Positions 6,689-60,666 of a stretch of DNA of 64,000 nt are shown in pieces (position 1 is the first letter of the stretch; each line of letters begins with the position of its first letter). A program made the position numbers and the translations under genes. The notes beneath the pieces are model-generated. The model had not been told where the DNA came from and searched no databases. It was given only the letters and a program-made list of their open reading frames with translations. This DNA is from a plasmid. Location of the stretch: the sequence record NZ_CP041047.1. One strand, given 5' to 3'.

Positions 6689-6697
6689 GCTGACGAA
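6689..6697 (+). promoter_or_regulatory. conserved motif CTGACGAAG (backbone promoter-associated motif, copy 1)
   Basis: same motif and spacing as 14 other copies (see findings). Confidence 0.45.
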
Positions 6698-6718
6698 GGC
6701 AAAAAAGATACTTTTCCA

Positions 6719-7350
6719 CAGGACAGTTCCAATAAAGAGATCCCAAAGGTGCAACGGAGTACAAAAGAGATCCCTGTACGCTGCAAGCCGCATGGTTACT
6801 GGGCTCAAGGGCATTTTATGACAATGGTAATGACTTTTTTGACATTGGTAATGATTAAAATGACATTGGTAGTGACTATTTCGACGTTAGTAGTGAGTAT
6901 TTGTGACAATGGTAGTGAGTTTTATTGTGTGATCTGAAGGTATAACTCTTAAAGAGTTTTGAGTATATTTCTATTATAATTCATATAGATACCATCTATC
7001 ACCTGTATGATGAAACAAAATTATTAAAATCTTATCCACTGTTTTCTATACGCATTTTCCTTTCATGCCCGTACATATTTTCGACAATTTAGCTATTCGA
7101 TGTTGATTTAACTCGAAGAGAGAATTTATCCCCATTTTCCACAAGGTAGTTCCAATAATTAGTACCTTACGAGTTCCCATAGATCACAAGAGATCCCCGC
7201 AGCTCGGAAGCCAGACGGCACAAGGCCTGGAAGCCAATCGGTGACAACGGTAGTGATTATTTTGACATTGGTAGTGAGTTTTTTAACGGTAGTAGTGAGT
7301 TTTTTGACAACGGTAGTGATTGCGGCGACAATGGTAGTGATTTTTTAAAG
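6719..7350. repeat. RepFIB-type origin region upstream of repA: two ~215-bp duplicated blocks (6719-6935 and 7139-7350), each ending in 4-5 direct iterons of type TGACAATGGTAGTGA
   Basis: direct repeats tgacaatggtaatgac / gacattggtagtgac / gacgttagtagtgag and so on; block-level duplication beginning ttccaca(a)gg(a/t)agttccaataa. Confidence 0.65.
7032..7040 (+). promoter_or_regulatory. DnaA-box-like sequence TTATCCACT (8/9 match to TTATCCACA)
   Basis: sequence match in the AT-rich stretch between the iteron blocks. Confidence 0.3.
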
Positions 7351-7560
7351 GATCTTTTTCACCGGAATTGATCCTTTGTTGATAAACTACGTATGTATTT
7401 GTTTTTATGTGAATTTCAGAGTTTTATATTTAGTCGTGGCGTTTTTTTAGCCTGGACTTATGCACAATCTGAGATCGTCGCAGAGATCCCTTAAGTGACA
7501 CTGAGGGCTTTGGGCGATAGTATTCAATAATCTGTTGATTAATACAGTCGATAAACCACT

Positions 7561-8679
7561 ATGACCAATGAGAAAGATTCTGAGCAGCAAGGCCAGATGG
7601 TTACCAGGGCTTTCTCTGTAACAGAGAGAGAGACAGGTAAAGAAATTATTTTACGTCCTAATAGCAGCAGGACGGTTCAGTCTATCGCGCTCATGCGCCT
7701 TGGGTTGTTTGTGCCATCACCAAAAAGCGTTGGCCGTCAGAGTCGTGAATACAAAACTGTTGGCTTTGATGCCACGAAAGAACTACAGACACTTTCTTTG
7801 ATGGAGAGCGAGGGTTTCACCAATATCTCGATCGTGGGTCAGCGCCTCGATATGTCTGTTGACTTCAAAACGTGGATGGGAATCATCCGAACGCTAGCTA
7901 ACCATCCGATTGATAACGATAAGATCAGCCTCAAATTTACTGAGTTTCTGAAGCTCTGTAACCCTGAAAATTATCGTTCCTCTACCGCATCCCGTAAGCG
8001 TATCGACGCGTCGTTACGCAGGCTGGCATCCGTGATGTTGTCCTTCACCAGCACCCACTCGTCAAAGGTGTATACGACGCACCTGGTGCAGTCTGCCTTG
8101 CTTGACCCGGACTCTGATCAGGTAGAGCTACAGATAGACCCTAAGATATTCGAGTTGTATCAGTACGACCACAAGGTTTTGATGCAGCTGAAGGCTATCA
8201 AGGAACTGGCGAAAAAAGAGAGCGCACAGGCGCTTTACACGTTCATTGAGTCACTTCCACCAAATCCAATCCCGATCTCCTTAACGAGACTTAAGAACCG
8301 ATTAAATCTTAAGACCCGTGCCAACAGCCAGAACGCCACAGTACGTAAGGCATTGGAGGAGCTGGCATCCATTGGTTACCTTCAGTACACCGAAGTAAAA
8401 AAAGATGGGAAGGTTTATTTCCAGATCCACAAACGCGATCCTGATTTGAATCTGAACAATATCCAACCACCACCTGATGGTGATGGCGAGGGTGATGCTG
8501 ATGAGGAGAACAATGGCACGTCGGGTAAAAATAATGGTGAGCCACTGGAAGGTGAATTGTGCCCACCAGATGAGCCCATTGATGGGGATGAAACGTTAAC
8601 CATCCATGACTTAACAGCTGAAGAACTTCACTACATTCGCAGCCTTAGAAGCCAGAAAAAGAACAATCCCGCCAGCTAG
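7561..8679 (+). CDS. repA: RepFIB-type replication initiator RepA (372 aa) with acidic C-terminal tail
   Basis: Iteron arrays on both sides; recalled similarity to the RepFIB/P307-type RepA family; Asp/Glu-rich C-terminus. Confidence 0.8.
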   Translation: MTNEKDSEQQGQMVTRAFSVTERETGKEIILRPNSSRTVQSIALMRLGLFVPSPKSVGRQSREYKTVGFDATKELQTLSLMESEGFTNISIVGQRLDMSVDFKTWMGIIRTLANHPIDNDKISLKFTEFLKLCNPENYRSSTASRKRIDASLRRLASVMLSFTSTHSSKVYTTHLVQSALLDPDSDQVELQIDPKIFELYQYDHKVLMQLKAIKELAKKESAQALYTFIESLPPNPIPISLTRLKNRLNLKTRANSQNATVRKALEELASIGYLQYTEVKKDGKVYFQIHKRDPDLNLNNIQPPPDGDGEGDADEENNGTSGKNNGEPLEGELCPPDEPIDGDETLTIHDLTAEELHYIRSLRSQKKNNPAS

Positions 8680-8749
8680 CATTCCCTCCGGGCTGTCAGA
8701 TGACGGCCTGGAACCCTCCCTCCCTGCACATCGTCAGAGAATCCTGTTT

Positions 8750-10210
8750 AGCTTAATGACAACGGTATTGAGTGACGCGGTCACTACTGTTGTCATTGCG
8801 GGGTGACCACTCATGACAATGGTAATGAGACTAGATAGCTCACTACTGTTGTCATCATCGACATCTCTCCAGACCAGCTTCTCAGGGAAGGTCTTACACC
8901 GCTCACTACCATTGTCGGAATCGCCGGTACAGACAAATCGCTGATACCCATGACACCATGACATCGGCAATGAGTCTTGGCAGCTCACTGCTGTTGTCAT
9001 CATCGACAACTCTCCAGAGCAGCTTCTCGGAGAAGACCTCATACCGCTCACTACCATTGTCGGCATCGTCAGTACGGATTTATCGCTGATTCCCATGACA
9101 CAATGACAACGGTAATGAGTGATTTGACTCACTACCGCTGTCATTTGCTCCCGGCGCATTTGAATGACCACTGTATTGACTAAGAATACTCACTACCGTT
9201 GTCATTCATGATTCAGACCAAGTTCTTACTGCTCCACCAGCACAATGACAACGGAAATGAGTTCTGTTGGTCATTACCGTTGTCATATGCATTCCAGGTT
9301 AATCAGGCCTTTCAGGTAGCTATGGTAAGGATTCACTCGCCGTACTGTCTGCTCGTACTTGAGGGGCGGGATGAATGACCGTGGTAGTGACCGCGTCACT
9401 CCCTGTCGTTGTCGTTGTATGAATACATGGCCTGTCGGTGACAATGGAAATGAGTCCAACCGCTGTCGTAGCTAACCTGATTGGTCAATGACAATGGATG
9501 TGATTTTTTCAAGTCTCTACCATTGTCATCGTTTCCAAGTACATTTCAGTGGGGTCGTTCCGGCGATGACGAATCAAGTGAGTGCGGGATCACAACCATT
9601 GTCGAGGCACAACTTGCCGGTTGTAGCCATACCGAACGCTGCGACAACGATAGTGATCTCGATCACTCATTACCGTTGTCACCAGGCGGATGGTGAAGCA
9701 CCAGAATCACTACTGTTGTCATCTAACATTCTGCTACCCATGCAACCAATGACGATGGTAGTGAGCAACGCCGTCTACTTGCTGTATATAGGGATAGTAT
9801 GATGAGCCATAACAATGGTAATGACTCACTACCATTGTCATAGTTCCTGTACTTGATTGCCGGTAACCAGACAAGGGTTAACCATTAAGTCACTACCGTT
9901 GTCATTACAGAAAGGTACTTTCCTTAATTGTCATTACCGTTGTCGACCATGCACCCTCTTACCAGTAGTAACGGTTCGTTAATTATGTGAAGGTGATCAT
10001 TACCATTGTCACTGGTTACACTCCCGGCAGATTCAAAAATCGAGTGACAATGGATGTGAGTTCGATGCGCAGGACGGCATCTCAGTGCCGATGGCAATAG
10101 TTATGAGCTGACCAGACTGGTGACAACGATAATGAGCCAAGCATTGAAGCCCGTTTGCTACGACAACGGTAATGATTAGGCCTCACTACCGTTGTCAGAC
10201 ACGATGCTTA
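8750..10210. repeat. Extended iteron field downstream of repA: about 30 copies of GACAA(C/T)GGTA(A/G)TGAG in both orientations, spaced roughly every 30-60 bp
   Basis: The repeated motif is visible throughout (for example 8756, 8812, 9097, 9241, 9440, 9488, 9640, 9810, 10035, 10160 forward; 8783, 8840, 8902, 9045, 9128, 9190, 9270, 9668, 9705, 9888, 9928, 10180 reverse). ORFs called here are spurious. Confidence 0.75.
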
Positions 10211-11617: not shown

Positions 11618-11920
11618 TTAGCTTTGAGTGCCGAAAAAACCACAATCCATAAGTTGCTCACCAACGGTATTGTCGAATAACATATCGTCTACTGAAACTT
11701 CATAGCTATTCTCTGATGAAAAATATCCAGCGTTATCATAGTCGACTTCTAAAGCGTCACCATCAATAACCACAACCTCAGTATTAACGAAAAGATCATC
11801 AAGGTCTGAAATAACCTCAATATCTTCACTCTGTTCATCGGTAATGACAATGACAACCATATCATCTTCAAACTCGGAAGCTGATACTTCATCATATCTT
11901 GCTGCAATTAAATCTGACAT
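11618..11920 (-). CDS. highly acidic small protein (100 aa; D+E over 30%), candidate DNA-mimic/anti-restriction-like
   Basis: composition only; the GTGACGAAG motif lies 57 bp upstream. Confidence 0.45.
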   Translation of the reverse strand: MSDLIAARYDEVSASEFEDDMVVIVITDEQSEDIEVISDLDDLFVNTEVVVIDGDALEVDYDNAGYFSSENSYEVSVDDMLFDNTVGEQLMDCGFFGTQS

Positions 11921-11976
11921 ATTAGCCTCCAGTTGAATGTGATTGCCTATATGTCTATATTACCACCCACATGCTT

Positions 11977-11985
11977 GTGACGAAG
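11977..11985 (+). promoter_or_regulatory. conserved motif GTGACGAAG (copy 2)
   Basis: 57 bp upstream of the 11920 start; followed on the coding strand by a TAATAT -10-like element. Confidence 0.45.
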
Positions 11986-12056: not shown

Positions 12057-12602
12057 TTATCCCTCGGCTAGTTCCAGCGCTTCCTTCTGGGAAGTGGCTT
12101 CACCGAACCAGACCAGATCATAATGCGTGAAGTCAGTAGATAACATGCTCCTGACCCGTTGTTCCTCTGTTGCCACAGTGCGGCTATAGACAGCTACACA
12201 GCGCTCTCTCTTCCCGCCCCGCAATGATGAAGGGCTGTTGAAAATCGCAAAACACATCGTTTCCGGCTTAACGTTAACCCCGCCCATTTTTTCAATGACG
12301 TAATCATAGGCAATTTTTTCAATGTCATAAAATGAGCCGTCAGATGACACCATTGAATATTTCAGAACAGTACCCCCCAGAGCTCGCTTAATCTGGTGCT
12401 CCCTTTGCTGCTCGTTGTTCCAGCGAAAGGTTTGACGGCTGCTGGGGTGTCCTACTTTCTGTTCCGCTTTTGCACGTGGGCTATAGCCGTCAGCAATGAG
12501 TGAATCCATAAATTCACGCATTGATAAAATCTTACCGTTATGACGAATTTGTTTGGCTAGGAAGTTTTCAATACGTTTTTCGTTGGCTTTTTGAAGTGTC
12601 AT
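12057..12602 (-). CDS. hypothetical protein (181 aa)
   Basis: ORF track; motif 56 bp upstream. Confidence 0.45.
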   Translation of the reverse strand: MTLQKANEKRIENFLAKQIRHNGKILSMREFMDSLIADGYSPRAKAEQKVGHPSSRQTFRWNNEQQREHQIKRALGGTVLKYSMVSSDGSFYDIEKIAYDYVIEKMGGVNVKPETMCFAIFNSPSSLRGGKRERCVAVYSRTVATEEQRVRSMLSTDFTHYDLVWFGEATSQKEALELAEG

Positions 12603-12657
12603 TTTTTCTGGCCTATGGTTCGTTGTCGTTATATTCAGTAAACCATAGGTCGTTCAT

Positions 12658-12666
12658 GTGACGAAA
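12658..12666 (+). promoter_or_regulatory. conserved motif GTGACGAAA (copy 3)
   Basis: 56 bp upstream of the 12602 start. Confidence 0.4.
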
Positions 12667-12689: not shown

Positions 12690-12963
12690 TCAATTATTTC
12701 GGTCATTAGAAAACGCAAATGATGATTATCGCCATCAGGATTGATTTTGTTTTTGTGATAATCCATTACGCTTACATTTCTTGCTTGTTTGAAGTGGTAA
12801 TTATCCATCGCGTTTACAGTTTTCTCATAGTAAGCTTCAGCTGAATAATCCAATAAACTTCGATAATAGGCAGCGACAACATCCCATCGACGATTTTCCG
12901 ATGCTTTACATAACTCTTCGTCGTCACCTATTGCCGCTATGATATAACCATATATATAGCCAA
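12690..12963 (-). pseudogene. 5'-truncated ORF remnant (reads ...AAYYRSLLDYSAEAYYEKTVNAMDNYHFKQARN...) cut by IS1
   Basis: open minus-strand frame runs without a start codon straight into the IS1 left end at 12964. Confidence 0.4.
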
Positions 12964-13212
12964 GGTGATGCTGCCAACTTACTGATTTAGTGTATGATGG
13001 TGTTTTTGAGGTGCTCCAGTGGCTTCTGTTTCTATCAGCTGTCCCTCCTGTTCAGCTACTGACGGGGTGGTGCGTAACGGCAAAAGCACTGCCGGACATC
13101 AGCGCTATCTCTGCTCTCACTGCCGTAAAACATGGCAACTGCAGTTCACTTACACCGCTTCTCAACCCGGTACGCACCAGAAAATCATTGATATGGCCAT
13201 GAATGGCGTTGG

Positions 13213-14197
<985 letters not shown>

Positions 14198-14262
14198 GAA
14201 ATTAATGTCGGATACGGCGCGAGCGCCTTATCCGACCAACTTATCAGGACGGAATGTTAAAA

Positions 14263-14402
14263 ATGAACATGTCGATGACAGAAAAAATAAAAGCAGGCAA
14301 GCTATTTACCGATATGTGCGAAGGCTTACCTGAAAAAAGACTTCGTGGGAAAACATTAATGTATGAGTTCAATCACTCGCATCCATCAGAAGTTGAAAAA
14401 AG
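14263..14402 (+). pseudogene. lacA: lacA 5' fragment (first 46 codons of thiogalactoside transacetylase)
   Basis: MNMSMTEKIKAGKLFTDMCEGLPEKRLRGKTLMYEFNHSHPSEVEKR, then cut by the inverted IS1. Confidence 0.8.
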
Positions 14403-15167
14403 GGTAATGACTCCAACTTATTGATAGTGTTTTATGTTCAGATAATGCCCGATGACTTTGTCATGCAGCTCCACCGATTTTGTGAGCGACAGCGACTTCC
14501 GTCCCAGCCGTGCCAGGTGCTGCCTCAGATTCAGGTTATGCCGCTCAATTCGCTGCGTATATCGCTTGCTGATTACGTGCAGCTTTCCCTTCAGGCGGGA
14601 TTCATACAGCGGCCAGCCATCCGTCATCCATATCACCACGTCAAAGGGTGACAGCAGGCTCATAAGACGCCCCAGCGTCGCCATAGTGCGTTCACCGAAT
14701 ACGTGCGCAAACCGTCTTCCGGAGCCTGTCATACGCGTAAAACAGCCAGCGCTGGCGCGATTTAGCCCCGACGTATCCCCACTGTTCGTCCATTTCCGCG
14801 CAGACGATGACGTCACTGCCCGGCTGTATGCGCGAGGTTACCGACTGCGGCCTGAGTTTTTTAAGTGACGTAAAATCGTGTTGAGGCCAACGCCCATAAT
14901 GCGGGCGGTTGCCCGGCATCCAACGCCATTCATGGCCATATCAATGATTTTCTGGTGCGTACCGGGTTGAGAAGCGGTGTAAGTGAACTGCAGTTGCCAT
15001 GTTTTACGGCAGTGAGAGCAGAGATAGCGCTGATGTCCGGCGGTGCTTTTGCCGTTACGCACCACCCCGTCAGTAGCTGAACAGGAGGGACAGCTGATAG
15101 AAACAGAAGCCACTGGAGCACCTCAAAAACACCATCATACACTAAATCAGTAAGTTGGCAGCATCAC
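14403..15167 (-). mobile_element. IS1 copy B (inverted; insB carries a 2-bp deletion frameshift)
   Basis: IS1 ends present. Copy B reads gcgcaaaccgtc where copy A has gcgcaacaaccgtc. The insB frame is split into 14692-14919 and 14418-14816 pieces. No matching 9-bp direct repeats at the outer edges of the IS1 pair. Confidence 0.85.
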
Positions 15168-15253
15168 CTGATGTGCCAAAGTCGATTACCTGTTGCATGG
15201 TTCACCTGTTTATTTATTCGTTTTGTATATTTATTTAAACACGGGCGTACCAG

Positions 15254-15262
15254 CTGACGAAT
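15254..15262 (+). promoter_or_regulatory. conserved motif CTGACGAAT (copy 4, orphan: the downstream gene is replaced by IS1)
   Basis: motif is present but the minus-strand gene it should serve is occupied by IS1 copy B. Confidence 0.35.
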
Positions 15263-15653: not shown

Positions 15654-15710
15654 AAAACACCTCGTGAATATTGTCCGGTTTGTTTACTTATTAAATCACG
15701 AGGCATTCGG

Positions 15711-15719
15711 GTGACGAAG
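15711..15719 (+). promoter_or_regulatory. conserved motif GTGACGAAG (copy 5)
   Basis: 58 bp upstream of the 15653 start. Confidence 0.45.
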
Positions 15720-15980: not shown

Positions 15981-16102
15981 TTTACACCTATATAAAAGAT
16001 TGCTGTCCGTAGAACCATTATCTATCGGGCCAATCAGCTGGCGAAATTAAACAGTCGAAAACCTTTAATTAAATATCAGGATAAGGTCAGTAGCTTTTAT
16101 GG

Positions 16103-40071: not shown

Positions 40072-40147
40072 GGTGTTTCTCCGCTTTAGTTATTGTGTCG
40101 CGAGGTTCGTTGCTTGCTGTAAATCCAGTTAAACACACACCAAACAG

Positions 40148-40156
40148 GTGACGAAG
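40148..40156 (+). promoter_or_regulatory. conserved motif GTGACGAAG (copy 6)
   Basis: 77 bp upstream of the 40071 start. Confidence 0.4.
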
Positions 40157-42229: not shown

Positions 42230-42273
42230 CTTTAAGCTTGATAATAATGTTTATCATAGCTGGAGTTATTCAG

Positions 42274-42282
42274 GTGACGAAT
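42274..42282 (+). promoter_or_regulatory. conserved motif GTGACGAAT (copy 7)
   Basis: 45 bp upstream of the 42229 start. Confidence 0.4.
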
Positions 42283-44720: not shown

Positions 44721-44768
44721 AGCCACCTCATGAGCTGTTTTTTTCCTATTATCAACCGGTGTCTCCTC

Positions 44769-44777
44769 CTGACGAAT
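44769..44777 (+). promoter_or_regulatory. conserved motif CTGACGAAT (copy 8)
   Basis: 49 bp upstream of the 44720 start. Confidence 0.4.
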
Positions 44778-48599: not shown

Positions 48600-48652
48600 T
48601 GTGTGTTCCCCGCTTTCTAATTGTGATTCTATTTTCAATCACCTTGAGCAGG

Positions 48653-48661
48653 TGACGAAGT
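48653..48661 (+). promoter_or_regulatory. conserved motif GTGACGAAG (copy 9)
   Basis: 54 bp upstream of the 48599 start. Confidence 0.45.
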
Positions 48662-51302: not shown

Positions 51303-51367
51303 GGGTCGCTCCTGATAACGGGTTACATGTTGTGGCTTCTGTATCCAGTATCTGGTGAGTGACTCAG

Positions 51368-51376
51368 GTGACGAAG
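51368..51376 (+). promoter_or_regulatory. conserved motif GTGACGAAG (copy 10)
   Basis: 66 bp upstream of the 51302 start. Confidence 0.4.
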
Positions 51377-52032: not shown

Positions 52033-52091
52033 TTAGCACCTGCTCTTATTGTCATGGGTATGCCGGTCGAACGGTATCCCCGTGCAGACCG

Positions 52092-52463
52092 TCAGTAAAC
52101 GGTTATTTCCTTTGCGCAGCAGTCGCATTGGTATTCGTTGATACCACCAGTTGCGACCCAGTTTATTGCGCCGCAGCGGCAACTCAACAGCTGGCGCATA
52201 CCAGGAGCAAGTGCCCGCTCTGAAAACGACTCAACCGGGACTTCGCCCGGGTAGTAGTAACCTTTTATCAGCTTGCTGCGTGAATGCCCGTCAGTGTCGG
52301 TGTAATGCAGATACACCTTCCGGGTATAAATCATACCCGAGTCAGTGCCGAACTGCGTTTTCAGAAGCATACATATCCTCCAGACGCTGAATACATTGTT
52401 GTGCGGCCTTATCAAGTAGTTCAGCCGTGGGTTCATCATAGATGCCACGTACCAGCAGACCAA
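52092..52463 (-). CDS. Cys-rich (zinc-ribbon-like) protein (123 aa by ORF track; may start at internal Met MLLKTQ, 52367)
   Basis: C-terminal CRCG...QCDCC pattern; overlaps the 3' end of the LRR gene. Confidence 0.4.
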   Translation of the reverse strand: MVCWYVASMMNPRLNYLIRPHNNVFSVWRICMLLKTQFGTDSGMIYTRKVYLHYTDTDGHSRSKLIKGYYYPGEVPVESFSERALAPGMRQLLSCRCGAINWVATGGINEYQCDCCAKEITVY

Positions 52464-53184
52464 ATATTTCCGGGTCTACAGACAAATCGTACATGCATAC
52501 GCGAACGCCAAGCGCTGTACGTAGCGCATAGACATGGCGGTTAGGCTTTCCGCCGATACCGGTGACTGACGCGACATTTTCAAAATTACCAGGGTTAACC
52601 AGGTTAATCACGGGGCACGATATACACTCAGGGATCCGCTTCAGAGCCACAGCATCCAGATACAGGCTGTGGCCCACTTTCAGGTTTTTTGGCAACGCTT
52701 GCAACGGCATGGCTTCGAGGGCCAGATTTTCTTCAAGATGCAGGTTATCCGGCAAAGTGGTAATACGGGTGTTTGACAGCATCATACTGCCAGCTACTTT
52801 CAGCGTATCCGGCAGATAGGCGATATCAGTACACATGATGTCCAGAACGCGGCCCACCGTCAGATTTTCCGGCAGATACTTAAGACGTGAAGAATTCGCC
52901 ATGAGCGTACCGGTAATGGTCAGGTTGTCAGGGAGAGATTCCAGCTCAGAGTAGCTGATAAACAGATTGCGGGCCACCAGCCCGGCAGGGATGCTATGAA
53001 TGCCCGACAGAATGGTCAGGGTGTTCGTCACGGTCAGATTCGCGGGAATATAGTCGCAGGGAATTGCCGGATCTTCTGGCTCAAGCGTAAACCCGACACG
53101 AAGATCGCCTTCAACGATGATTCGTCCGTCCTGAAGGGTAAAGGCCACACCATTCGCTGCCAGTTTATCAATGAAGTCTGTCAT
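52342..53184 (-). CDS. leucine-rich-repeat protein (280 aa)
   Basis: at least 7 tandem ~21-aa repeats of the form LP(D/E)NLT(V/I)xGxLxLxxxxIxx (LPDNLTITGTLMANSSRLKY / LPENLTVGRVLDIMCTDIAY / LPDTLKVAGSMMLSNTRITT / LPDNLHLEENLALEAMPLQA / LPKNLKVGHSLYLDAVALKR). Confidence 0.6.
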   Translation of the reverse strand: MTDFIDKLAANGVAFTLQDGRIIVEGDLRVGFTLEPEDPAIPCDYIPANLTVTNTLTILSGIHSIPAGLVARNLFISYSELESLPDNLTITGTLMANSSRLKYLPENLTVGRVLDIMCTDIAYLPDTLKVAGSMMLSNTRITTLPDNLHLEENLALEAMPLQALPKNLKVGHSLYLDAVALKRIPECISCPVINLVNPGNFENVASVTGIGGKPNRHVYALRTALGVRVCMYDLSVDPEIFGLLVRGIYDEPTAELLDKAAQQCIQRLEDMYASENAVRH

Positions 53185-53225
53185 ATCGGTTTCCTTTTAA
53201 TGGCCCGACGAGCCGGGCCGGAGGT

Positions 53226-53543
53226 TCAGAGTTTGCTGACAAAGTTCTGCTGCGTGAACAGGTACATATCGCCCTGCTCATTGAACATGCACAGATTTTC
53301 GAGGATGCGCTTTTCAATCCAGACGACCGGCTTTTCACGCATATCCTTCGCGAGCGAAAAGGTGTTTCGCAGCCGGGTAATGCGGTGCTGATCATTGATT
53401 GCCTGGTGAATTGCGGCCTTTGACGCTGCCGCCTGCTTTTTTACGTTGTTGCGGGCACACCATAATTCGCCACTAGCGGCTGATGCCCGCGCTGCTGGCT
53501 GACGTGAGGAGTCCAGTTGGTCATAACGTAAGAGATTCGGCAT
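53226..53543 (-). CDS. hypothetical protein (105 aa from MPNLLRYDQ; ORF track start 53558), first gene of the LRR operon
   Basis: conserved motif 57 bp upstream of 53543. Confidence 0.4.
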   Translation of the reverse strand: MPNLLRYDQLDSSRQPAARASAASGELWCARNNVKKQAAASKAAIHQAINDQHRITRLRNTFSLAKDMREKPVVWIEKRILENLCMFNEQGDMYLFTQQNFVSKL

Positions 53544-53599
53544 GATGCCCCCTGTCATAGTTTTGTCGTTATTGACCTATTATCTGGCAGGTGGGGCTG

Positions 53600-53608
53600 G
53601 TGACGAAG
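53600..53608 (+). promoter_or_regulatory. conserved motif GTGACGAAG (copy 11)
   Basis: 57 bp upstream of the 53543 start. Confidence 0.4.
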
Positions 53609-53691
53609 GGCGCTGAGGTTGTCTGATGGTTAAAAGATTGCCGTTAGTGTTCCATATGGTATAATTGAATTACCAAATGGGAGGGCTAGTT

Positions 53692-54138
53692 ATGACGATG
53701 AAAGTTTTTTCTCCAGACGTTACCAAAACGAATCAGCACTGCTTATGGCAGGTTGCTGGGCTGGATAATGACGGTATCGCGCTGATGGATAAAATCAATC
53801 ACGGTCTCGATGGCACAGTAGCTAAGCACATTTCTGAATGGGCTAACATCACGCCGTCTGAGCTGCGCAAAATGTCGGGTATACCTAATACGACGTTTAA
53901 TCGTAGCATCAAAGACCGTTTCACTGCCGATCAGAGCGAACGTCTGGTGCGCATTATCCGCGTAATTGAACGCGCTGTAGAGCTGTTTGAAGGTGACAAA
54001 GAAGCGGCGCACAAATGGCTGAACGAAGCGAACCGTGGTCTGAGCTGGAAATCACCGGCAGAGCTTGTTTCTTCTGAGACAGGTGCGCTTGAAGTGATGC
54101 GCCTGATTACGCGTATTGAGCACGGGGTATACTCGTGA
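53692..54138 (+). CDS. Xre-family antitoxin with DUF2384-like C-terminal domain (148 aa; start at ATG after RBS GGAGGG; ORF track 53665)
   Basis: C-terminal KWLNEANRGLSWKSPAELVSSETGALEVMRLITRIEHGVY is typical of Res-Xre/ParS-type antitoxins; 4-bp overlap with the downstream RES gene. Confidence 0.7.
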   Translation: MTMKVFSPDVTKTNQHCLWQVAGLDNDGIALMDKINHGLDGTVAKHISEWANITPSELRKMSGIPNTTFNRSIKDRFTADQSERLVRIIRVIERAVELFEGDKEAAHKWLNEANRGLSWKSPAELVSSETGALEVMRLITRIEHGVYS

Positions 54139-54593
54139 TCCTTTACCGACTGACCAAGACCCGTTATCTGATGACTGCGTGGTCTGGTCTGGGTGCGAAA
54201 GAAGCGGGGGGCCGCTGGAACAGCGTAGGCACTGCAATGGTCTACCTGTCTGAAACGGCCAGCCTTACCATGCTTGAAACGCTGGTACACATTCACGCGC
54301 CGCAGTTACTGGACGACTTTACACTGCTGAGTCTTGATGTACCGGATGATCAGATCCAGACCTTCGACATGAGCCGTCTCCCTGATAACTGGGCGAGTGA
54401 GGATGCTCCTGCTGAGCTGGCGCTCTACGGTGATAACTGGGCTGAAAGCGGTTCTTCTATCGCGCTGCGTATTCCAAGTGCGTTGTCTCCGGTTGAATTT
54501 AACTACTTGCTGAATCCGGCACACCCTGAACTCTTTGACCTGATGGCTACGGTTAAGAAAATTCCGTTCCGGTTTGATTCCCGCCTGAAATAA
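54135..54593 (+). CDS. RES-domain toxin (152 aa)
   Basis: RES-domain residues: R in LYRLTKTRY, GGRWNSVGTAMVYLSETASLTMLETLVH; gene organisation ATGA-coupled to the xre antitoxin. Confidence 0.7.
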   Translation: MILYRLTKTRYLMTAWSGLGAKEAGGRWNSVGTAMVYLSETASLTMLETLVHIHAPQLLDDFTLLSLDVPDDQIQTFDMSRLPDNWASEDAPAELALYGDNWAESGSSIALRIPSALSPVEFNYLLNPAHPELFDLMATVKKIPFRFDSRLK

Positions 54594-54627
54594 CACACAG
54601 GCAACTCCCCGGCATTGACGAACTGAG

Positions 54628-54867
54628 GTGTCTCTGATGATTCAGAAAGCGAAAGTCGCTAAAGCGTTTATCTCTGTAATTGCCTTGTTCGCCTTTGTCT
54701 ACTGGGGACTTGATCCCGATTCAATTTGTCAGGCAGTTGGTGACGCATCTCAAACCTGCGGTTACTCCGGCAAGAATGGCGATGCGAGTCTGGTTGGTTC
54801 CGTGTTTGCTCTGATGCTGACGGTGTTGGCGGGTGCGATGCTTTGGGCGTGGGTCAGGAAAGGCTAA
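54628..54867 (+). CDS. small membrane protein (79 aa, two TM segments)
   Basis: hydrophobic stretches VIALFAFVYWGL and VGSVFALMLTVLAGAMLWAWV. Confidence 0.4.
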   Translation: MSLMIQKAKVAKAFISVIALFAFVYWGLDPDSICQAVGDASQTCGYSGKNGDASLVGSVFALMLTVLAGAMLWAWVRKG

Positions 54868-54934
54868 TCAGAACTCTTGCAACTCCCTCCGTGATGCCGG
54901 GTGACGCTCCTCACTGAGCGCCACCAGTCAGTCA

Positions 54935-55207
54935 TTACAAACGGGTTGATGATTCAATCGCGGGCGGAAGGCTACTATTCAGCGCGTCGAACCCGCCAAA
55001 TGCCCGGCCCTCTTTTGTCAGCACCAGATGCATCGGCGTTTCGTTGATATTACGGGCGATGTAATCGTTGATGAATGCCCGCGCCTGATCGGCATTTTTA
55101 ACCTCTGCTGTTTCCGGCATGGAGTTATGGGAACGATTAAAGACGACAGAGACATAATTCCCTTCAATTCTTACCGGGCGAGTCGATACGGTGAGTTTCA
55201 TGGTCAT
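54935..55207 (-). CDS. hypothetical protein (90 aa)
   Basis: ORF track. Confidence 0.4.
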   Translation of the reverse strand: MTMKLTVSTRPVRIEGNYVSVVFNRSHNSMPETAEVKNADQARAFINDYIARNINETPMHLVLTKEGRAFGGFDALNSSLPPAIESSTRL

Positions 55208-55250
55208 TTTCCTGTAGTGAGTGTTGTGTGTATTGGTGTTCTGCCACTAT

Positions 55251-55805
55251 CTACTGCAACGTTGCGGCCACAGGGCGAAGAATTGCTATCGCCTTTGATA
55301 ACGCCTGCCGCTCACCACCATCAAGGATTCTGACTGCTTCTACGCAAGCCGCTTCTGCTGTATCAGCACGTTCTACCAACGTCCTGACGGTATTTTCATA
55401 TGATCCGCAATCAGGCTCCTGATTGCTGTCTTCGCTCAGCGTGTTCCATGACTCAGTGAGGTTAACTGCAACAGCGACCAATTGGTCAGTGCTGATATCA
55501 CCTTTTACGCAACGGCAGGCCACTTCAGCGCCCAGACGTTCAGCAATGTCGTAGTACCAGACTCCCGGTTCTTCAGATGCCTGATACGCAGGTTCGCAGG
55601 CTTTACAGATCTGCTCTGCGGCATCCAACATCCAGTGAGCACATTCAATTTCGCCACCAGCCAGCGTTTCACAGATCATTGTCTGTACGCTGTCACAGTT
55701 GAAGGTGAGGGGGATAGGATTAGCCACTGATAATGCGGTCAGACGGGAGACTTCATGCTGGAAGCCCTGAAACATGAACATGGCGCAGATAGCTGGATTT
55801 AACAT
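55251..55805 (-). CDS. hypothetical Cys-rich protein (184 aa)
   Basis: ORF track; conserved motif 69 bp upstream. Confidence 0.4.
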   Translation of the reverse strand: MLNPAICAMFMFQGFQHEVSRLTALSVANPIPLTFNCDSVQTMICETLAGGEIECAHWMLDAAEQICKACEPAYQASEEPGVWYYDIAERLGAEVACRCVKGDISTDQLVAVAVNLTESWNTLSEDSNQEPDCGSYENTVRTLVERADTAEAACVEAVRILDGGERQALSKAIAILRPVAATLQ

Positions 55806-55873
55806 GGTAGACCCCTGTAGTTATGTGTGTTGTTCGTTTTGTTTACATAACCAGTTAACCACGCTCCCCGCAG

Positions 55874-55882
55874 GTGACGAAG
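55874..55882 (+). promoter_or_regulatory. conserved motif GTGACGAAG (copy 12)
   Basis: 69 bp upstream of the 55805 start. Confidence 0.4.
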
Positions 55883-55963
55883 GCTTTCGGGGCAGAAAAT
55901 TCACAAAAAAAACCGACCATTAAGGCCGGTTATGATCTGGAGTATATGGGGCTGAAAACCGCG

Positions 55964-56305
55964 TTATGCCTTCACTTTCGCCATAAACAGCTGCATGGTT
56001 TCTTCAGCAAGCGGAGTGCCAACCTGCTCAAGAACATACTCCGCGACATGCGGGGTGAGAATGAAGTCGATAAACTCCGGCAAGGACATGCTGTTCAGGC
56101 TCGGTAGCTGTCTGGACAGTGCATTCTGGTAATTTTCCACTTCACCCAGTTTGCGCTCGGGCCAGCCCACCAGCTCAGGGTGCTTTTCCTTAAGTGCGAG
56201 GCCGCGCTCCGGGAAACTGTTACTGATGGGGTGTCTGGCGAGGGTGGGGATCAGGAGATTCGCCAGAAAATCCACTTTCTCGTAATCAAGACAGACAGAA
56301 TTCAT
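55964..56305 (-). CDS. hypothetical protein (113 aa)
   Basis: ORF track. Confidence 0.4.
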   Translation of the reverse strand: MNSVCLDYEKVDFLANLLIPTLARHPISNSFPERGLALKEKHPELVGWPERKLGEVENYQNALSRQLPSLNSMSLPEFIDFILTPHVAEYVLEQVGTPLAEETMQLFMAKVKA

Positions 56306-56423
56306 ATAGGTTTACCTCTTGCCACTGGCTATGATGTTCGCTTGCTATCTGGAAAACTCTACCAAAGCGGCTGGCGATATCTCATTGAAAACGCCAGCAG
56401 AATGCGGTCATTTCCAGCAGGAG

Positions 56424-56867
56424 TTACCCCATCTGATAACTGTCATAAGATGCCCCGCAGGCTTCCACCAGCGCATCCAGATCACCGGTAAACTCTCTGG
56501 CCCGCTTCATCAATGCACGGTGTAATTCCGCTGGTGGAATGTCATCGCTACTCTTCGCCGGGTATTCAACACTGAACGCGATGGTAAACGCATGGCTATA
56601 CCACGGCCCGGCATTCTGGTTTTCAAAGCGGGCCATCAGCTGGCTTTCGGTTGTATCGGTAGCAAATGTATCGAGGTGGACGACATCGACCGGCACGTTG
56701 AGTGCCCCGGCAGTGGTTGATGCCAGCTGCCGGGCTTCGTCTCCTCGCTCTGGTGGTGCGCAGTAGAGACATTTCCCGTTCAGTACCACCAGCGTCTGAC
56801 CGTAGGTCGTACTGACGATACTCACGGTGTTAGCCGGTTGCGGGTGTGTGGTTGCAGTGTGCTGCAT
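56424..56867 (-). CDS. hypothetical protein (147 aa from MQHTATTHP with RBS GGAGAA; ORF track start 56891)
   Basis: conserved motif 55 bp upstream of 56867. Confidence 0.4.
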   Translation of the reverse strand: MQHTATTHPQPANTVSIVSTTYGQTLVVLNGKCLYCAPPERGDEARQLASTTAGALNVPVDVVHLDTFATDTTESQLMARFENQNAGPWYSHAFTIAFSVEYPAKSSDDIPPAELHRALMKRAREFTGDLDALVEACGASYDSYQMG

Positions 56868-56921
56868 GGTGTTCTCCATTAGGTCACTCACATGGCAACC
56901 AGCTTACCCGGCACAATTCAG

Positions 56922-56930
56922 CTGACGAAA
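56922..56930 (+). promoter_or_regulatory. conserved motif CTGACGAAA (copy 13)
   Basis: 55 bp upstream of the 56867 start. Confidence 0.35.
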
Positions 56931-57104
56931 TCAGGACGGACTGGTGTATATCGTTCGCAAAATAAAGATATTTTTTATCATCAGCACCGGTAGTTACGGG
57001 GCAAATTGCAGGTATCCGGTACAATGGTGATATGAAGGGCATTACATGCAGAATCGTGTGGCCCGGCAGACGGATACCGAATATCAGCAGAAGGAACCAG
57101 GACA

Positions 57105-57443
57105 ATGCAGGAACTCGACTTTGACCATATCCAGATAAACCTGAACCCGCGAGCGTGTGCTGTCACACCTATCCCGGAAGACCTGAAAAGGGAGCTGGCT
57201 TATCTGGGCGCTATCGCAGAGAGAAAGAAATTCGCGGCAAGCCTGATTGTTAATCTCTACAACCCGGACGTTTGCGGGGCGAATATGTACAAACTCACGG
57301 CCTATTGCCGTAACGAGTCATGCGATACCCTTCGCGATGGCATGATGACCCTGATACAGCTTTGTGCATACATGGAGTCACATGAGATCTATGGCGAGAC
57401 GTTTGTCAAAAAGCTGATTAAACAATGGGAGTTTCGTAAGTAG
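57105..57443 (+). CDS. hypothetical protein (112 aa)
   Basis: ORF track; one of the few plus-strand genes in this region. Confidence 0.4.
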   Translation: MQELDFDHIQINLNPRACAVTPIPEDLKRELAYLGAIAERKKFAASLIVNLYNPDVCGANMYKLTAYCRNESCDTLRDGMMTLIQLCAYMESHEIYGETFVKKLIKQWEFRK

Positions 57444-57805
57444 TCTGCTGCTTCAAAATACCTTTCTGACAGGGCGCTATGTGCGCCCTTTTATTTTAAA
57501 AAAACGGGAAGGTCTTGCCCGGGTATTACCTGCTATTTTCAACTACCAAACCACAACGGCAGAAGAAAATTGACCAGTCGAAGCAATTCGACCAGGAGTT
57601 CGACATACAGGAAATGGAAGTCTTTCATAACAGTCTCTTCATATAATTGGCTCGACAAAATCGTTGCATCACGACGATCGCAGGTGTGAGGTTTGTTTTC
57701 TTCGTGGGGGTTGTCAGCTATCACGACATTGAGGCAGGCAAGCGCAGGTGTCACAGTTTCGGGTATATTTTATGCTGGTGGGGTGACCACCAGCTGCGGG
57801 TATAG

Positions 57806-58186
57806 TTACTTAATGGTTTTCAGGAGGGTGAACTTGGTTTTGCACCGGGTGCATTGCGCTTTCAGAGACCCGGAGCGCACCTGTTTCAGTTTCCCGGCGC
57901 ACTGGGTACAGGCTACGTCCTTCACACGTTGTGCCATTCGCTCATCCACAGCGAGTGTTTTGGTCGGGTTATGCTTACGCTTGGGAGCCTTCAAAAGCCC
58001 CAGCGCCCGCAACGTGGCTTTGTACTCCCGGGTGATCCATTGACCGTCGCGCTCATAGTGCAGGCCATCCCCCATCATATCGCCAAGCTGTATCAGCCGC
58101 TGATGCAGCACTTTTTCTTCTTCAGGACTCATATACCGTGCTCTCTTTAAATTATTGAGACGGAACCGAGCCGATTGATACCTCAT
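57806..58186 (-). CDS. small protein with C-terminal zinc-ribbon (CTQC...CTRC), 126 aa by ORF track (possible start MSPEEEKV at 58132)
   Basis: Cys pairs CTQCAGK...QCTRCKTKF. Confidence 0.4.
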   Translation of the reverse strand: MRYQSARFRLNNLKRARYMSPEEEKVLHQRLIQLGDMMGDGLHYERDGQWITREYKATLRALGLLKAPKRKHNPTKTLAVDERMAQRVKDVACTQCAGKLKQVRSGSLKAQCTRCKTKFTLLKTIK

Positions 58187-58215
58187 ATGAGGCCACCAGC
58201 GTCTTTACTGGCGTT

Positions 58216-58614
58216 TCAACGAAGCTGACGCTCTGCTGAGTAGAGTCGAATGAGAATCGCGTCCAGCGCCCCACAGAGCGCGATCCTGAAGCTTTCGCTA
58301 TGACCGTCCCGTTCGCGCATCTCCAGAAGGGCATCCAGCTCGTTATCGTCAATCGGCAGTGGCCCGGAACAGAAGGTTTTCACCATGTCAGAGGTGTCAG
58401 GGTTTATACCTGCAATGCGCAGGATATCGGGAACCTCAGACCGGTAGATCACCGGTCGGCCTGATGGCGGTGTCCACGTTATCGGCTCTATCTTCAGTTG
58501 CGGTAAGCCAGCACCGGCGAGGGCGTTATTCAGATCGTCTATAAGCACGACATCCGCTCCTGAAGGAGGATGTACGCCGAGGGCCGCAGGGATTTCGACA
58601 GAGATATTGTGCAT
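58216..58614 (-). CDS. hypothetical protein (about 132 aa from MHNISVEIP; ORF track extends to 58722)
   Basis: the internal start avoids overlap with the upstream glutaredoxin-like gene. Confidence 0.35.
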   Translation of the reverse strand: MHNISVEIPAALGVHPPSGADVVLIDDLNNALAGAGLPQLKIEPITWTPPSGRPVIYRSEVPDILRIAGINPDTSDMVKTFCSGPLPIDDNELDALLEMRERDGHSESFRIALCGALDAILIRLYSAERQLR

Positions 58615-58624
58615 GGCGTTTACC

Positions 58625-58912
58625 TCAGTGAAGGACGTGATTAACCAGCGACGGGGGGATATCGAGTGACCCGACACTCCAGCCATTGGCAGTTGTCGCA
58701 ATAAGATCTGGCCGGAACCCACCCCAACCCGTCACACGGCCCGAATCGTTGACCACCACCACCAGCGGCGCACCGGTATTTTGTGTCAGGCGAACGAGAT
58801 CTGCGTTGTCCACCAGCGGGATCTCATTCACGTCCACCCCAGCCAGAGAAAAGCGGGTAAGCGTCATGCGACATTTCGGACAATCAGGGGCAGTAAACAC
58901 AGTAATTTTCAT
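58625..58912 (-). CDS. glutaredoxin/NrdH-like thioredoxin-fold protein (95 aa from MKITVFTAPDCPKC)
   Basis: CPKC redox motif immediately after a beta-strand start, typical of NrdH/glutaredoxin; conserved motif 52 bp upstream. Confidence 0.55.
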   Translation of the reverse strand: MKITVFTAPDCPKCRMTLTRFSLAGVDVNEIPLVDNADLVRLTQNTGAPLVVVVNDSGRVTGWGGFRPDLIATTANGWSVGSLDIPPSLVNHVLH

Positions 58913-58963
58913 TGGGATAGCCTGGTGTATACGGGATATATTCATTATCCCAGCTTTCCGCTT

Positions 58964-58972
58964 CTGACGAAG
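58964..58972 (+). promoter_or_regulatory. conserved motif CTGACGAAG (copy 14)
   Basis: 52 bp upstream of the 58912 start. Confidence 0.4.
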
Positions 58973-59052
58973 CGTTGCGCGGGTAATCAGAGCGTAAGCA
59001 GGTAAGATATTGTTGGGGCCATCCTGCAACATCAGTTGCGCCAGTTGCCTGG

Positions 59053-59171
59053 CTATTCGTCGCTCTCTCCATTAGAGAAAATAAACCAAATAAGCAGAAC
59101 GCCTCCGACCCACATTCCAACAAAGAGGCAAATACCGATCAGGTCATAGACGTATTGTGGGATTTCATTCA
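59053..59171 (-). CDS. possible small hydrophobic peptide (38 aa; MNEIPQYVYDLIGICLFVGMWVGGVLLIWFIFSNGESDE)
   Basis: not in the ORF track (under 60 aa); a single TM helix followed by an acidic tail; weak. Confidence 0.25.
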
Positions 59172-59213
59172 TAACGCATCCTCATTAATAATTTGTATTC
59201 AGCCTTAAACCGG

Positions 59214-59684
59214 TCATTTCATTAACCGAATCCGGTCTATCAAAGCGCTACCCTGCGTTGCATTCAGCCCCTCGTGCCGGTGAGTCAGGAACAGGGCAGG
59301 GCAGTCAGTTGGAAAGAGTCGAGCGGTATCGTCCACGAAGGTGTAATGCTGTAGGCCGAACCGTTTAACGACCGCCATGCATTCGTGATAACGCACGTGG
59401 TTATTCACCAGCCCATCCAGATCGGGATTGAGTCCAGCAATCCGATCGCGTATACCCGCAGGGAAATGACTCAGCACCATCTCCCGGGGTACGCCGGTAC
59501 GCCAGTTTGTGGAAAGGATAATTCCCGTCTGCGGGCATTGCGTCAGCACGTGATCCAGCACAGGCATAAACTCCAGTGACCCGTTTTCCGCCCGGTGGAG
59601 TACACCGTCGATGTCCAGGAAAATCCAGTGACGACGGGCATCTATTTCCAGCCAGAACTCGCCCGCAGAGCGCCGGGTCGACAT
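59214..59684 (-). CDS. HAD-superfamily hydrolase-like protein (about 156 aa from MSTRRSAGEF; ORF track start 59828)
   Basis: HAD motif I FLDIDGVL near the N-terminus of the shorter form. Confidence 0.5.
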   Translation of the reverse strand: MSTRRSAGEFWLEIDARRHWIFLDIDGVLHRAENGSLEFMPVLDHVLTQCPQTGIILSTNWRTGVPREMVLSHFPAGIRDRIAGLNPDLDGLVNNHVRYHECMAVVKRFGLQHYTFVDDTARLFPTDCPALFLTHRHEGLNATQGSALIDRIRLMK

Positions 59685-60049
59685 ACAATCTATATCGTCC
59701 TGACAGGTAAACCTGACTAACCACTTCTGTAATAATCGGAACATAGAGGCCTCTCGCGGTAGTTGACTATATGCAGAACCGGCAACCATCAAAATCATAC
59801 GGATTCTGTTGCCATGAAATACGGCCACACCCGGGGCAATTCCAGCGAGTCAGCCCCTTTGACTGTCGGCGATTTTGGCGTTTCAGCCAGGCAGGCATCA
59901 GCAGACCGGCCCCCTGCGTCATTTTACGGCGGTCTACCAACGGTGTCACGCAAGCTGACCAGATAAAAACGGTCTTTCATGAAACACTCCAGAGGATGAT
60001 GGCAGGAAAATAGCCCGGCGCGGCGGATACCGACACCGGGGAGGAGGGG

Positions 60050-60604
60050 TTAGCTTTCGATTTTGCTGACGTTTACGGTGTCATCGTCGTTACGCTTTAC
60101 ACCCAGCATGGTATCGCCATCGACTTCGATAATGCCGTCAAAGTAGTCGGTCATTTCGTCATAGCTGACTTCATCAAGGTCATCCAGCCGGTAGGAAGAG
60201 CCATCCGGCAGAACAAACTGACCATCCAGCGTGGCAAGGTCATACGCCAGCGGGGTAACCGTGAAGTAATACTCATCGGTGAACCAGACCGCGCCAACCA
60301 CCAGTGGGTGAGAAATGTGGAATTCGACGGTGTTATAGCCCTGCGCTGCGATTGCATCCAGCAAATCAATGAAGCCGGGCATCGTATCGCCATCCCAGCC
60401 ATCAGCCGATAAGGAAGGCTTGAGGTTATCCCAGTCGCTCAGACTGAAAAACACTGTGCCCTCACCGTCATCGCTGATATGGGATGAAATGTACGTCGCG
60501 CTTGCTTTTGAAGCCATTGCAAACAGGAAGTCCTCATCGAGCACGTGTTTGAGGGAGGTTTTAAAAACCTTGTCAGTGCCTGCTGCCGGGATAATCGCTA
60601 ACAT
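60050..60604 (-). CDS. acidic protein (184 aa from MLAIIPAAG with RBS GAGGTG), candidate DNA-mimic/anti-restriction-like
   Basis: Asp/Glu-rich throughout (DDLDEVSYDEMTDYFDGIIEVDGD); conserved motif 54 bp upstream. Confidence 0.4.
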   Translation of the reverse strand: MLAIIPAAGTDKVFKTSLKHVLDEDFLFAMASKASATYISSHISDDGEGTVFFSLSDWDNLKPSLSADGWDGDTMPGFIDLLDAIAAQGYNTVEFHISHPLVVGAVWFTDEYYFTVTPLAYDLATLDGQFVLPDGSSYRLDDLDEVSYDEMTDYFDGIIEVDGDTMLGVKRNDDDTVNVSKIES

Positions 60605-60657
60605 GAAACACCTCAGTGGTTGTGTTGGTCTGTTTTTATTATCGAACGACTGAGTCT

Positions 60658-60666
60658 GCTGACGAA
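60658..60666 (+). promoter_or_regulatory. conserved motif CTGACGAAG (copy 15)
   Basis: 54 bp upstream of the 60604 start. Confidence 0.4.

Follow-up and report, generated by a model that had tools for sequence, protein, structure and literature searches.

In plasmid RK2 of incompatibility group P-1 (IncP-1), short operators of KorA and KorB lie over the backbone promoters and make up a global regulon. The operators of the phage P1 repressor C1 are asymmetric, span 17 base pairs (bp) and overlap a -10-like sequence, and the middle promoters of phage T4 combine a MotA box with AsiA-remodelled σ70. On the IncN plasmids pKM101 and R46, CUP elements with a consensus of ~13 nucleotides (nt) are bound by ArdK (Delver & Belogurov 1997, as cited in PMC6289460). 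Here we describe a motif dispersed over a 64,000-nt stretch of the plasmid record NZ_CP041047.1, which we call the window and always mean at its full length. The motif reads TGACGAA on the strand presented and TTCGTCA in the direction of transcription. Judged by its position, orientation, spacing and conservation, it is very probably the -35 element of a σ70-type family of ~40 promoters.

Positions 40000-60000 of the window match more than 100 plasmids at ≥99% identity, Citrobacter predominating, among them pKPC_CAV1321-244 (NZ_CP011611, 243.7 kb, MOBH relaxase), which we used whole as the reference plasmid (hereafter CAV1321-244, or CAV1321). The window belongs to a MOBH plasmid of the pKPC_CAV1321 type, a relative of the IncT plasmid Rts1. 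CAV1321-244 codes for MobI(A/C), an AcaB-family regulator, an FlhC/FlhD-like pair and an F-type transfer system, which places it in the IncA/C-IncT-SXT superfamily; Rts1, the IncT prototype, is syntenic with it and has a homologue for 110 of its 224 backbone proteins. The reference plasmid was partitioned into a 177.7-kb backbone, 17.7% of it intergenic, and a 66-kb accessory region. Plasmids of the pKPC_CAV1321 type carry carbapenemase genes in Citrobacter, Klebsiella and Enterobacter, and PLSDB holds more than 100 near-identical backbones; most of their backbone genes have no assigned function.

Distribution and anatomy of the motif

All 15 copies of TGACGAA that a first-pass annotation had reported on the plus strand of the window were confirmed, position by position. 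The window holds 30 copies, 23 of them on the plus strand, against 9.3±3.2 in shuffled sequence, where none of 100 shuffles attained this number. On the question of intragenic frequency that the annotation had raised, 41 of the 75 TTCGTCA words on the backbone of CAV1321-244 (177.7 kb) are intergenic, where 17.7% would be expected (p = 6e-13). For 31 TTCGTCA copies on this plasmid, a co-oriented annotated start codon follows 50-131 nt downstream; a 40-column position matrix was trained on these promoter-context copies, whose leave-one-out scores range from 8.8 to 35.9 bits with a median of 23.9. Scanned at ≥14 bits, CAV1321-244 gave 41 matches versus 1.2 (maximum 4) in random sequence, all 41 on the backbone, 37 of them intergenic and none in the 66-kb accessory region. 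At ≥12 bits the window gave 17 matches, and random sequence matched to it in first-order composition gave 0.4 (maximum 2); the count of 17 is partly circular, as the training set includes the window's own sites. The 17 are the 15 reported sites, a further copy at 16045 (-) and a weak match at 12920 (+).

Downstream of every one of the 15 copies there is a minus-strand gene, as had been reported, with 56-84 nt between the first T of TTCGTCA and the start codon; this agrees with the earlier 45-80 bp, for which the count began at the gene-proximal end of the motif. The AT-rich -10-like hexamers were found behind the motif at the spacing first described, and the copy at 15254 is indeed orphaned, with 31 nt of the downstream PAPS-reductase gene left in comparison with CAV1321-244. 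The loci parAB, ccdAB and res-xre and the insertion sequence (IS) copies, said to lack the motif, have no matrix match, and neither has the block flanked by ISKpn26; five bare TGACGAA words occur in that block, each within a long open reading frame (ORF). Two details did not survive: TGAT follows the motif in 3 of 15 copies only, not usually, and the exact 11-mer AGGTGACGAAG, with up to two mismatches allowed, is not significant by itself (23 occurrences versus 13.6). The signal resides in the heptamer plus partner elements at fixed positions, not in the 11-mer. We found no published description of the motif in the literature on pKPC_CAV1321, on Rts1/IncT promoters or on AcaB; a deletion study of Rts1 (PMC10838148) covers conjugation regulators only.

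The anatomy of the promoters was read from an anchored alignment of the 31 sites; positions run with transcription, which is on the minus strand of the window, and the heptamer's first T is position 0. The consensus is TTCGTCA(c/g)CtG. Positions -18 to -13 are T-rich, in part as the U-tract of an upstream terminator; positions 0-6 are the invariant TTCGTCA, followed at 7-10 by c/g, C, t and G; the spacer at 11-18 holds almost no information; G-t-G occupies 19-21 and T-A-w-A-m-T 23-28. Position 35, 7 nt after the hexamer, is A in 23 of 31 sites and is the predicted transcription start, and an A-rich leader follows. Of the best TATAAT-like hexamers, 23 begin at +23 and 7 at +22 (16/17-nt spacer); 27/31 match TATAAT in at least 4 of 6 positions and 26/31 end in T. 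A TG precedes the best per-site hexamer in 11/31, and in the anchored alignment G21 is found in 22/31 and T20 in 16/31, so that TG is enriched and not general. The median distance from motif to start codon, 64 nt, implies leaders of ~15-50 nt.

As a -35 hexamer, TCGTCA matches TTGACA at 4/6 positions with a 16-nt spacer, and TTCGTC at 2/6 with 17 nt; the second -35 position, the most conserved T of the σ70 consensus, is C in every copy. A generic σ70 scan independently called three sites (TCGTCA-16-GATAAT or TCGTCA-16-TATGAT), and terminators lie just upstream of four. The information content of the element is far above that of ordinary -35 hexamers. The alignment has no dyad symmetry, and the copies are not arranged in tandem. 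Taken together, fixed spacing, restriction to intergenic backbone DNA and conservation at orthologs support the earlier proposals of a -35 element, or an operator overlapping -35, and of a backbone regulon signature.

A second element, GTAAACAAAACGAA(C), occurs at or just past the predicted transcription start in ~10/31 motif promoters, at a variable offset of 33-38 nt from the -35 element. It is found at 55840-55853, 15675-15690 and 6655-6669 of the window and at 183252, 187575, 188626, 205470 and 242864 of CAV1321-244, as well as in Moellerella, Morganella and Providencia plasmids; at the promoter of the Tus gene (plasmid position 78219) it stands upstream of the -10. It might act in the leader or in translation, or serve as a second operator. 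An inverted repeat formed by TTCGT in the -35 and ACGAA in the leader was considered and rejected, given that the leader element is present in only ~10/31 promoters and at offsets of 33-38 nt.

Lineage variants and the putative reader

In promoter context, TTCGTCA was counted 28 times in CAV1321 and 14 times in Moellerella/Providencia plasmids. The Moellerella, Morganella and Providencia plasmids, whose ParB-like protein is 66% identical, retain TTCGTCA with (c/g)(c/t)GG flanks and occasionally have TTTGTCA or TTCGTCG; the orthologs behind TTCGTCA there are those for the ParB-like protein, the PAPS reductase, a 3.4-kb ORF and a PerC-family protein. The motif is conserved at orthologous genes across plasmids whose proteins are just 47-66% identical. 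Rts1, in which TTCGACC was counted 20 times in promoter context, has gCTATTCGACC(cc) in at least 20 promoters at an unchanged distance from the -10, and Escherichia coli pECTOK-001_1 has cTaTTCGGC(C/T), with six TTCGGCC in promoter context. No TTCG-N-C-N promoters were found in the IncC, pT82A and p15793A segments examined. The promoters of the ParB-like gene from the Citrobacter, Moellerella and Rts1 plasmids align with 77% column identity, element and -10 being kept and the differences lying in the heptamer (TCA versus ACC) and the spacer. The common core is TTCG-N-C-N, with positions 5 and 7 of the heptamer uniform within a lineage and different between lineages. An annotation-free k-mer search upstream of -10-like hexamers recovered TTCGAC in Rts1; on CAV1321 and pT82A the top k-mers of the same search were unrelated words common to both records, which we attribute to shared IS26 copies. 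A search of genome contigs with the ParB-like protein returned only two close relatives.

Rts1 also has TTCGTCA four times in promoter context, limited to a duplicated module at 12-50 kb (dnaN, a DUF4942 gene and others). This module is a second copy of the DNA-metabolism module and matches CAV1321 genes best. Because the first module uses TTCGTCA and the remaining plasmid TTCGACC, the comparison suggests that Rts1 has a chimeric origin in two lineages, each with its own promoter dialect. The paralogous modules at 12-50 kb and 69-105 kb share Tus, ssb, Dam, RdgC, DUF1064, DUF2726, DUF4942 and other genes.

That variants are uniform within a lineage and different between lineages, with σ70 the same protein in all hosts, points to a plasmid-encoded DNA-binding reader that probably co-evolved with its sites. 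Copy-to-copy conversion is an unlikely source of the uniformity, since the adjoining spacer is not homogenised. The first-pass annotation had suggested either a backbone-encoded regulator or an unusual sigma factor; the former gains indirect support from the lineage-specific variants, and the latter, like any extracytoplasmic function (ECF) or other alternative sigma promoter, is unlikely in view of the σ70-type -10 and the absence of an annotated σ factor on CAV1321-244 and Rts1.

A model for these promoters can be put forward. Each of the ~40 promoters would belong to a unit made of terminator, promoter, leader of ~15-50 nt and one or more genes, and the units would be separate transcription units of the non-transfer backbone. 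The heptamer would double as an imperfect σ70 -35 hexamer (TCGTCA, 4/6, 16-nt spacer) and as the binding site of a lineage-specific protein. This reader may be a global repressor with an asymmetric operator embedded in the -35 hexamer; the ~40 units would then be active on entry into a repressor-free cell and be turned down as the repressor accumulates. We favor the repressor version, tentatively, as plausible rather than probable. In its favor, the promoters look self-sufficient (a TATAAT-like -10, often with TG upstream, and a 4/6 -35), the motif-free units are either loci with their own regulator (parAB, ccdAB, RES-Xre, rep) or transfer operons, the known global regulators of plasmids act as repressors, and the closest documented precedent, CUP/ArdK of IncN, is repressive (PMC6289460). 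Several points weigh against it. A single asymmetric 7-11-mer with neither dyad nor tandem repeat is unusual for repressors, and a C in place of the most conserved σ70 -35 base in every copy is typical of activator-dependent promoters. Rts1 holds two variants together, so that one reader would have to tolerate both or two readers exist, and its FlhDC-like activator operon is preceded by the element, which is not so in CAV1321. Finally, ~45 regulon and backbone proteins queried against Pfam and PHROG yielded almost no assignment and no candidate repressor.

The same asymmetry would suit an activator, be it a class-II-type factor in contact with region 4 of σ70 or a MotA/AsiA-like replacement of -35 recognition, without which the units would be silent; we regard this as possible, if rather unlikely. 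It would account for an orientation-locked element at -35 to -25, held at a fixed distance from a σ70-type -10, and for the C at the most conserved -35 position, and a motif promoter precedes a PerC-family activator gene in four plasmids from three lineages, a positive-feedback layout if PerC were the reader. Opposing it, PerC is absent from Rts1 and so is not the general reader, and PerC/Pch proteins have been described as binding AT-rich DNA and relieving H-NS silencing, without a defined motif (PMC4764244). No MotA, AsiA or σ-like protein is annotated on CAV1321-244, and none matched among the ~45 of 224 backbone proteins scanned, no systematic structural search having been made. Moreover, a -10 with upstream TG and a 4/6 -35 should allow basal activity unaided. 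Still more doubtful is a co-evolved reader that takes over or redirects -35 recognition by the host RNA polymerase, the plasmid counterpart of phage σ appropriation; if true, each IncT-like lineage would possess a private transcription channel (TTCGTCA, TTCGACC, TTCGGCC) and the chimera Rts1 two.

Nor need there be a dedicated factor at all: a weak σ70 -35 with its flanks, in one ancestral terminator-promoter cassette spread by recombination and kept alike by concerted evolution, is an unlikely explanation that nevertheless draws on several observations. The variants TCGTCA, TCGACC/A and TTGTCA are all TTGACA-like at a 16-nt spacer, the terminator-then-promoter layout is repeated between small genes, much as in the promoter-stem-loop cassettes of T4-type phages, and the leader element GTAAACAAAACGAA common to ~10/31 promoters hints at common descent. 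What it leaves unaccounted for are seven invariant bases beside unrelated spacer and upstream sequence, which would require an implausible gene conversion limited to 7 bp; an information content in excess of ordinary -35 hexamers; and the lineage-fixed non-consensus bases at positions 5 and 7, which a σ70 identical across hosts cannot explain. Very improbable is a role apart from transcription, as a dispersed centromere (parS), replication iteron or recombination site. IncC relatives do have a dispersed intergenic TTTCACATGTGAAA, the parS of a ParB/KorB-like protein (PMC10954446), and the present plasmid has both a ParAB pair and a stand-alone ParB-like protein. The motif, however, is neither palindromic nor tandem, always points the same way as the gene downstream of it, stands in fixed register with a -10 hexamer, and differs from the iterons and the 56-bp array described below.

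The plasmids were also examined for proteins that could be the reader; almost none of the regulon genes received a Pfam or PHROG assignment. Proteins conserved with the module and encoded at CAV1321-244 93419-93772, 94050-94730 and 96363-96707 are candidates. Co-occurrence of an ORF with the motif, a check proposed in the first-pass annotation, was found in part: a PerC-family gene (PF06069, E = 2.5e-10) is preceded by a motif promoter in CAV1321, Moellerella, Providencia and pECTOK (there with the TTCGGCT variant), and it accompanies three motif lineages and is missing from Rts1. The gene is conserved at 38-47% identity (CAV1321-244 87324-88066; L019 5872-6282; L020 19871-20273; L021 19852-20270), with homologues in ~150 PLSDB plasmids, not including Rts1; the CAV1321-244 protein is encoded at 87731-88066. 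Since Rts1 lacks a PerC homologue despite its 20 or more such promoters, the protein was ruled out as universal reader and is kept as a lead only.

Rts1 Orf249 is a negative regulator whose deletion raises conjugation 400-fold (PMC10838148). Inspected by eye, Orf249 and its CAV1321 counterpart c176827 each appear to combine a long low-complexity tail with a ribbon-helix-helix N-terminus; their genes directly follow a ParM-like gene and have short-repeat arrays upstream, GTTTCTGGRGAA in CAV1321 and GAATGA ~12 times in Rts1 (loci CAV1321-244 176827-178394 and 178400-179580; Rts1 186278-188300). The FlhDC-like activator genes are in the same gene string. On the grounds of fold, ParM-like neighbor and upstream repeats, we read the two proteins as ParR-like adaptors with parC-like repeats and set them aside as readers; the locus looks like a ParMRC-type partition locus with Orf249 as its ParR-like protein. 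A small divergent protein, CAV1321-244 c95090-95437 (115 amino acids, aa), has a weak SarA/Rot-like match and is preceded by the palindrome AATCATAT-N3-ATATGATT (CAV1321-244 95090-95570; Rts1 33438-33800 and 85164-85560), which is probably its own operator. Since this palindrome is kept in both Rts1 copies, the small winged-helix protein was taken for a local regulator and dismissed as reader. The stand-alone ParB-like protein is the sole DNA-binding candidate in the window, and its predicted recognition helix, judged by eye, is slightly different in Rts1; ParB proteins bind palindromes, and the evidence was too weak to retain it.

Predicted promoter sites and other features of the window

The promoter cores of the window are given here from their -35 region to their -10 hexamer, with distances counted from the first T of the heptamer to the start codon; they lie on the minus strand, with one doubtful exception. 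The core at 6669..6697 runs from TTCGTCAGCTA to TTTACT, scores 25.9 bits, corresponds to plasmid site 242827 and precedes an 82-aa ORF (6387-6635, -) by 62 nt. At 11956..11984 (TTCGTCACAAG, TAATAT; 21.2 bits) a core stands 64 nt from a 100-aa ORF (11618-11920), and at 12637..12665 (TTCGTCACATG, TTTACT; 33.6 bits) another stands 63 nt from a 181-aa ORF (12057-12602). The orphaned core, 15233..15261 (TTCGTCAGCTG, TTAAAT; 34.7 bits), belonged to the gene of an 811-aa PAPS-reductase family protein, which is broken 31 nt past its start by a 10.7-kb deletion beside the insertion at 12965-15167. The core at 15690..15718 (TTCGTCACCCG, TTTAAT, with an GTAAACAAAC leader; 38.4 bits) stands 65 nt from a 121-aa ORF (15288-15653). 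The extra copy that the earlier list lacked, 16017..16045, has the variant TTCGCCAGCTG and GATAAT, scores 22.1 bits and matches plasmid site 224963; its target, a 66-aa ORF (15780-15980, -), begins 65 nt downstream.

The stand-alone ParB-like gene (38896-40071, -) follows at 84 nt the core 40127..40155 (TTCGTCACCTG, (TG)tTTAACT; 36.5 bits), whose orthologous promoters were aligned and which has a terminator at 40200-40231 just upstream. The core 42253..42281 (TTCGTCACCTG, TATGAT; 27.4 bits), called by the σ70 scan as TCGTCA-16-TATGAT, serves a 57-aa ORF (42047-42220, -) plus subsequent genes. That at 44748..44776 (TTCGTCAGGAG, GATAAT; 21.1 bits) lies within the annotated 5' end of ORF 44319-44804, whose annotated start is thus upstream of its own motif promoter; translation probably begins 56 nt downstream of the motif, at an in-frame ATG (44720) that has GAGGTG before it, which would give a protein of 133 aa. 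Further cores lie at 48631..48659 (TTCGTCACCTG, GAAAAT; 31.8 bits), 60 nt from a 173-aa ORF (48078-48599), and at 51347..51375 (TTCGTCACCTG, GATACT; 30.2 bits), 73 nt from a 54-aa ORF (51138-51302) and with a terminator at 51382-51400. A 105-aa ORF (53226-53543) begins 64 nt after the core 53579..53607 (TTCGTCACCAG, GATAAT; 30.4 bits; TCGTCA-16-GATAAT in the σ70 scan), and a 184-aa ORF (55251-55805, -) begins 76 nt after 55853..55881 (TTCGTCACCTG, TTAACT, with an GTAAACAAAACGAAC leader; 31.3 bits), which has a terminator at 55911-55931.

Three more cores complete the minus-strand set: 56901..56929 (TTCGTCAGCTG, TAAGCT; 21.5 bits), 62 nt from a 147-aa ORF (56424-56867); 58943..58971 (TTCGTCAGAAG, GATAAT; 16.9 bits), 59 nt from a 95-aa ORF with a weak glutaredoxin-like match (58625-58912); and 60638..60666 (TTCGTCAGCAG, GATAAT; 29.8 bits), 62 nt from a 184-aa ORF (60050-60604). 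The weak and doubtful plus-strand copy, 12920..12948 (GTCGTCACCTA, GATATA; 15.1 bits), lies on the reference plasmid inside an annotated coding sequence of the opposite strand, with the nearest co-oriented gene 422 nt off.

Relative to CAV1321-244 the window is reversed in orientation and shows four differences. Inserted DNA occupies 1076-3200 and 12965-15167, the latter having replaced 10.7 kb of backbone; a block at 18590-38899, flanked by ISKpn26, is absent from the reference; and 400 bp are deleted near 59934. The block at 18590-38899, 18 kb of higher G+C (0.52-0.56) between two ISKpn26 copies, has the appearance of a composite transposon inserted directly downstream of the ParB-like gene. 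Repeats of 21 bp, TGACAATGGTAGTGAyTTTTT (TGACAATGGTAGTGA...), of iteron type and unrelated to the motif, occupy 6814-6925, 7242-7346 and 8812-9120; they flank RepB-family genes, together with a 145-bp repeat in 2.1 copies, and are probably replication origin iterons. Just upstream of parA lies an array of 6.4 copies of a 56-bp unit with 92% identity (47288-47645), likely the centromere and operator of ParAB. An Rfam scan of the window returned nothing at gathering thresholds.

Implications and comparison with described systems

One promoter signature would define ~40 predicted co-regulated units, including dnaN, ssb, the ParB-like gene, the PerC-family gene and many small genes, and may give direct access to the programme by which plasmids of the whole IncT-like group are established and maintained. 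The natural variants, with T, A or G at position 5 and A or C at position 7, offer ready-made specificity mutants for a putative reader. In practice, the motif helps to correct start-codon annotation and to distinguish backbone from acquired DNA.

Among plasmid systems, CUP/ArdK shares with the present motif a conserved sequence upstream of several backbone or leading-region genes, overlapping their promoters; a single plasmid-encoded regulator coordinates the establishment genes there, as the putative reader would here. It differs in sequence and in number, three ArdK-binding CUP sites being named in PMC6289460 versus ~40 copies here; ArdK is known, and in the present case one asymmetric word falls on the -35 hexamer itself. 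KorA/KorB and the IncC parS likewise disperse a short motif over the backbone promoters of a large conjugative plasmid, which for IncC is also of the MOBH superfamily. Their motifs, in contrast, are palindromes bound by dimers at variable promoter positions, whereas the motif described here is asymmetric and locked to -35. On the IncC plasmid pM216_AC2 (L009), the dispersed palindrome ACTTTCACATGTGAAAGT, the parS of IncC ParB (PMC10954446), lies near start codons at 3880, 4370, 13000 and 24060.

Phage systems offer parallels of another kind. As in T4 middle promoters, an asymmetric 9-11-bp element takes the place of the canonical -35 and keeps a constant spacing to a good σ70 -10, which here has TG upstream in about a third of the sites; unlike them, the plasmid has no annotated MotA or AsiA homologue, and its element is still 4/6 -35-like. 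P1 C1 is similar in placing one asymmetric operator type in many scattered promoters of a large extrachromosomal replicon and in controlling accessory DNA-metabolism genes, for example dnaB-, ssb-, dam- and umuD-like ones, although its operator has no sequence similarity to the motif. The regulon signature is kin to known plasmid systems and fits none of them, since its sequence differs and it lacks the palindrome of ParB/KorB sites.

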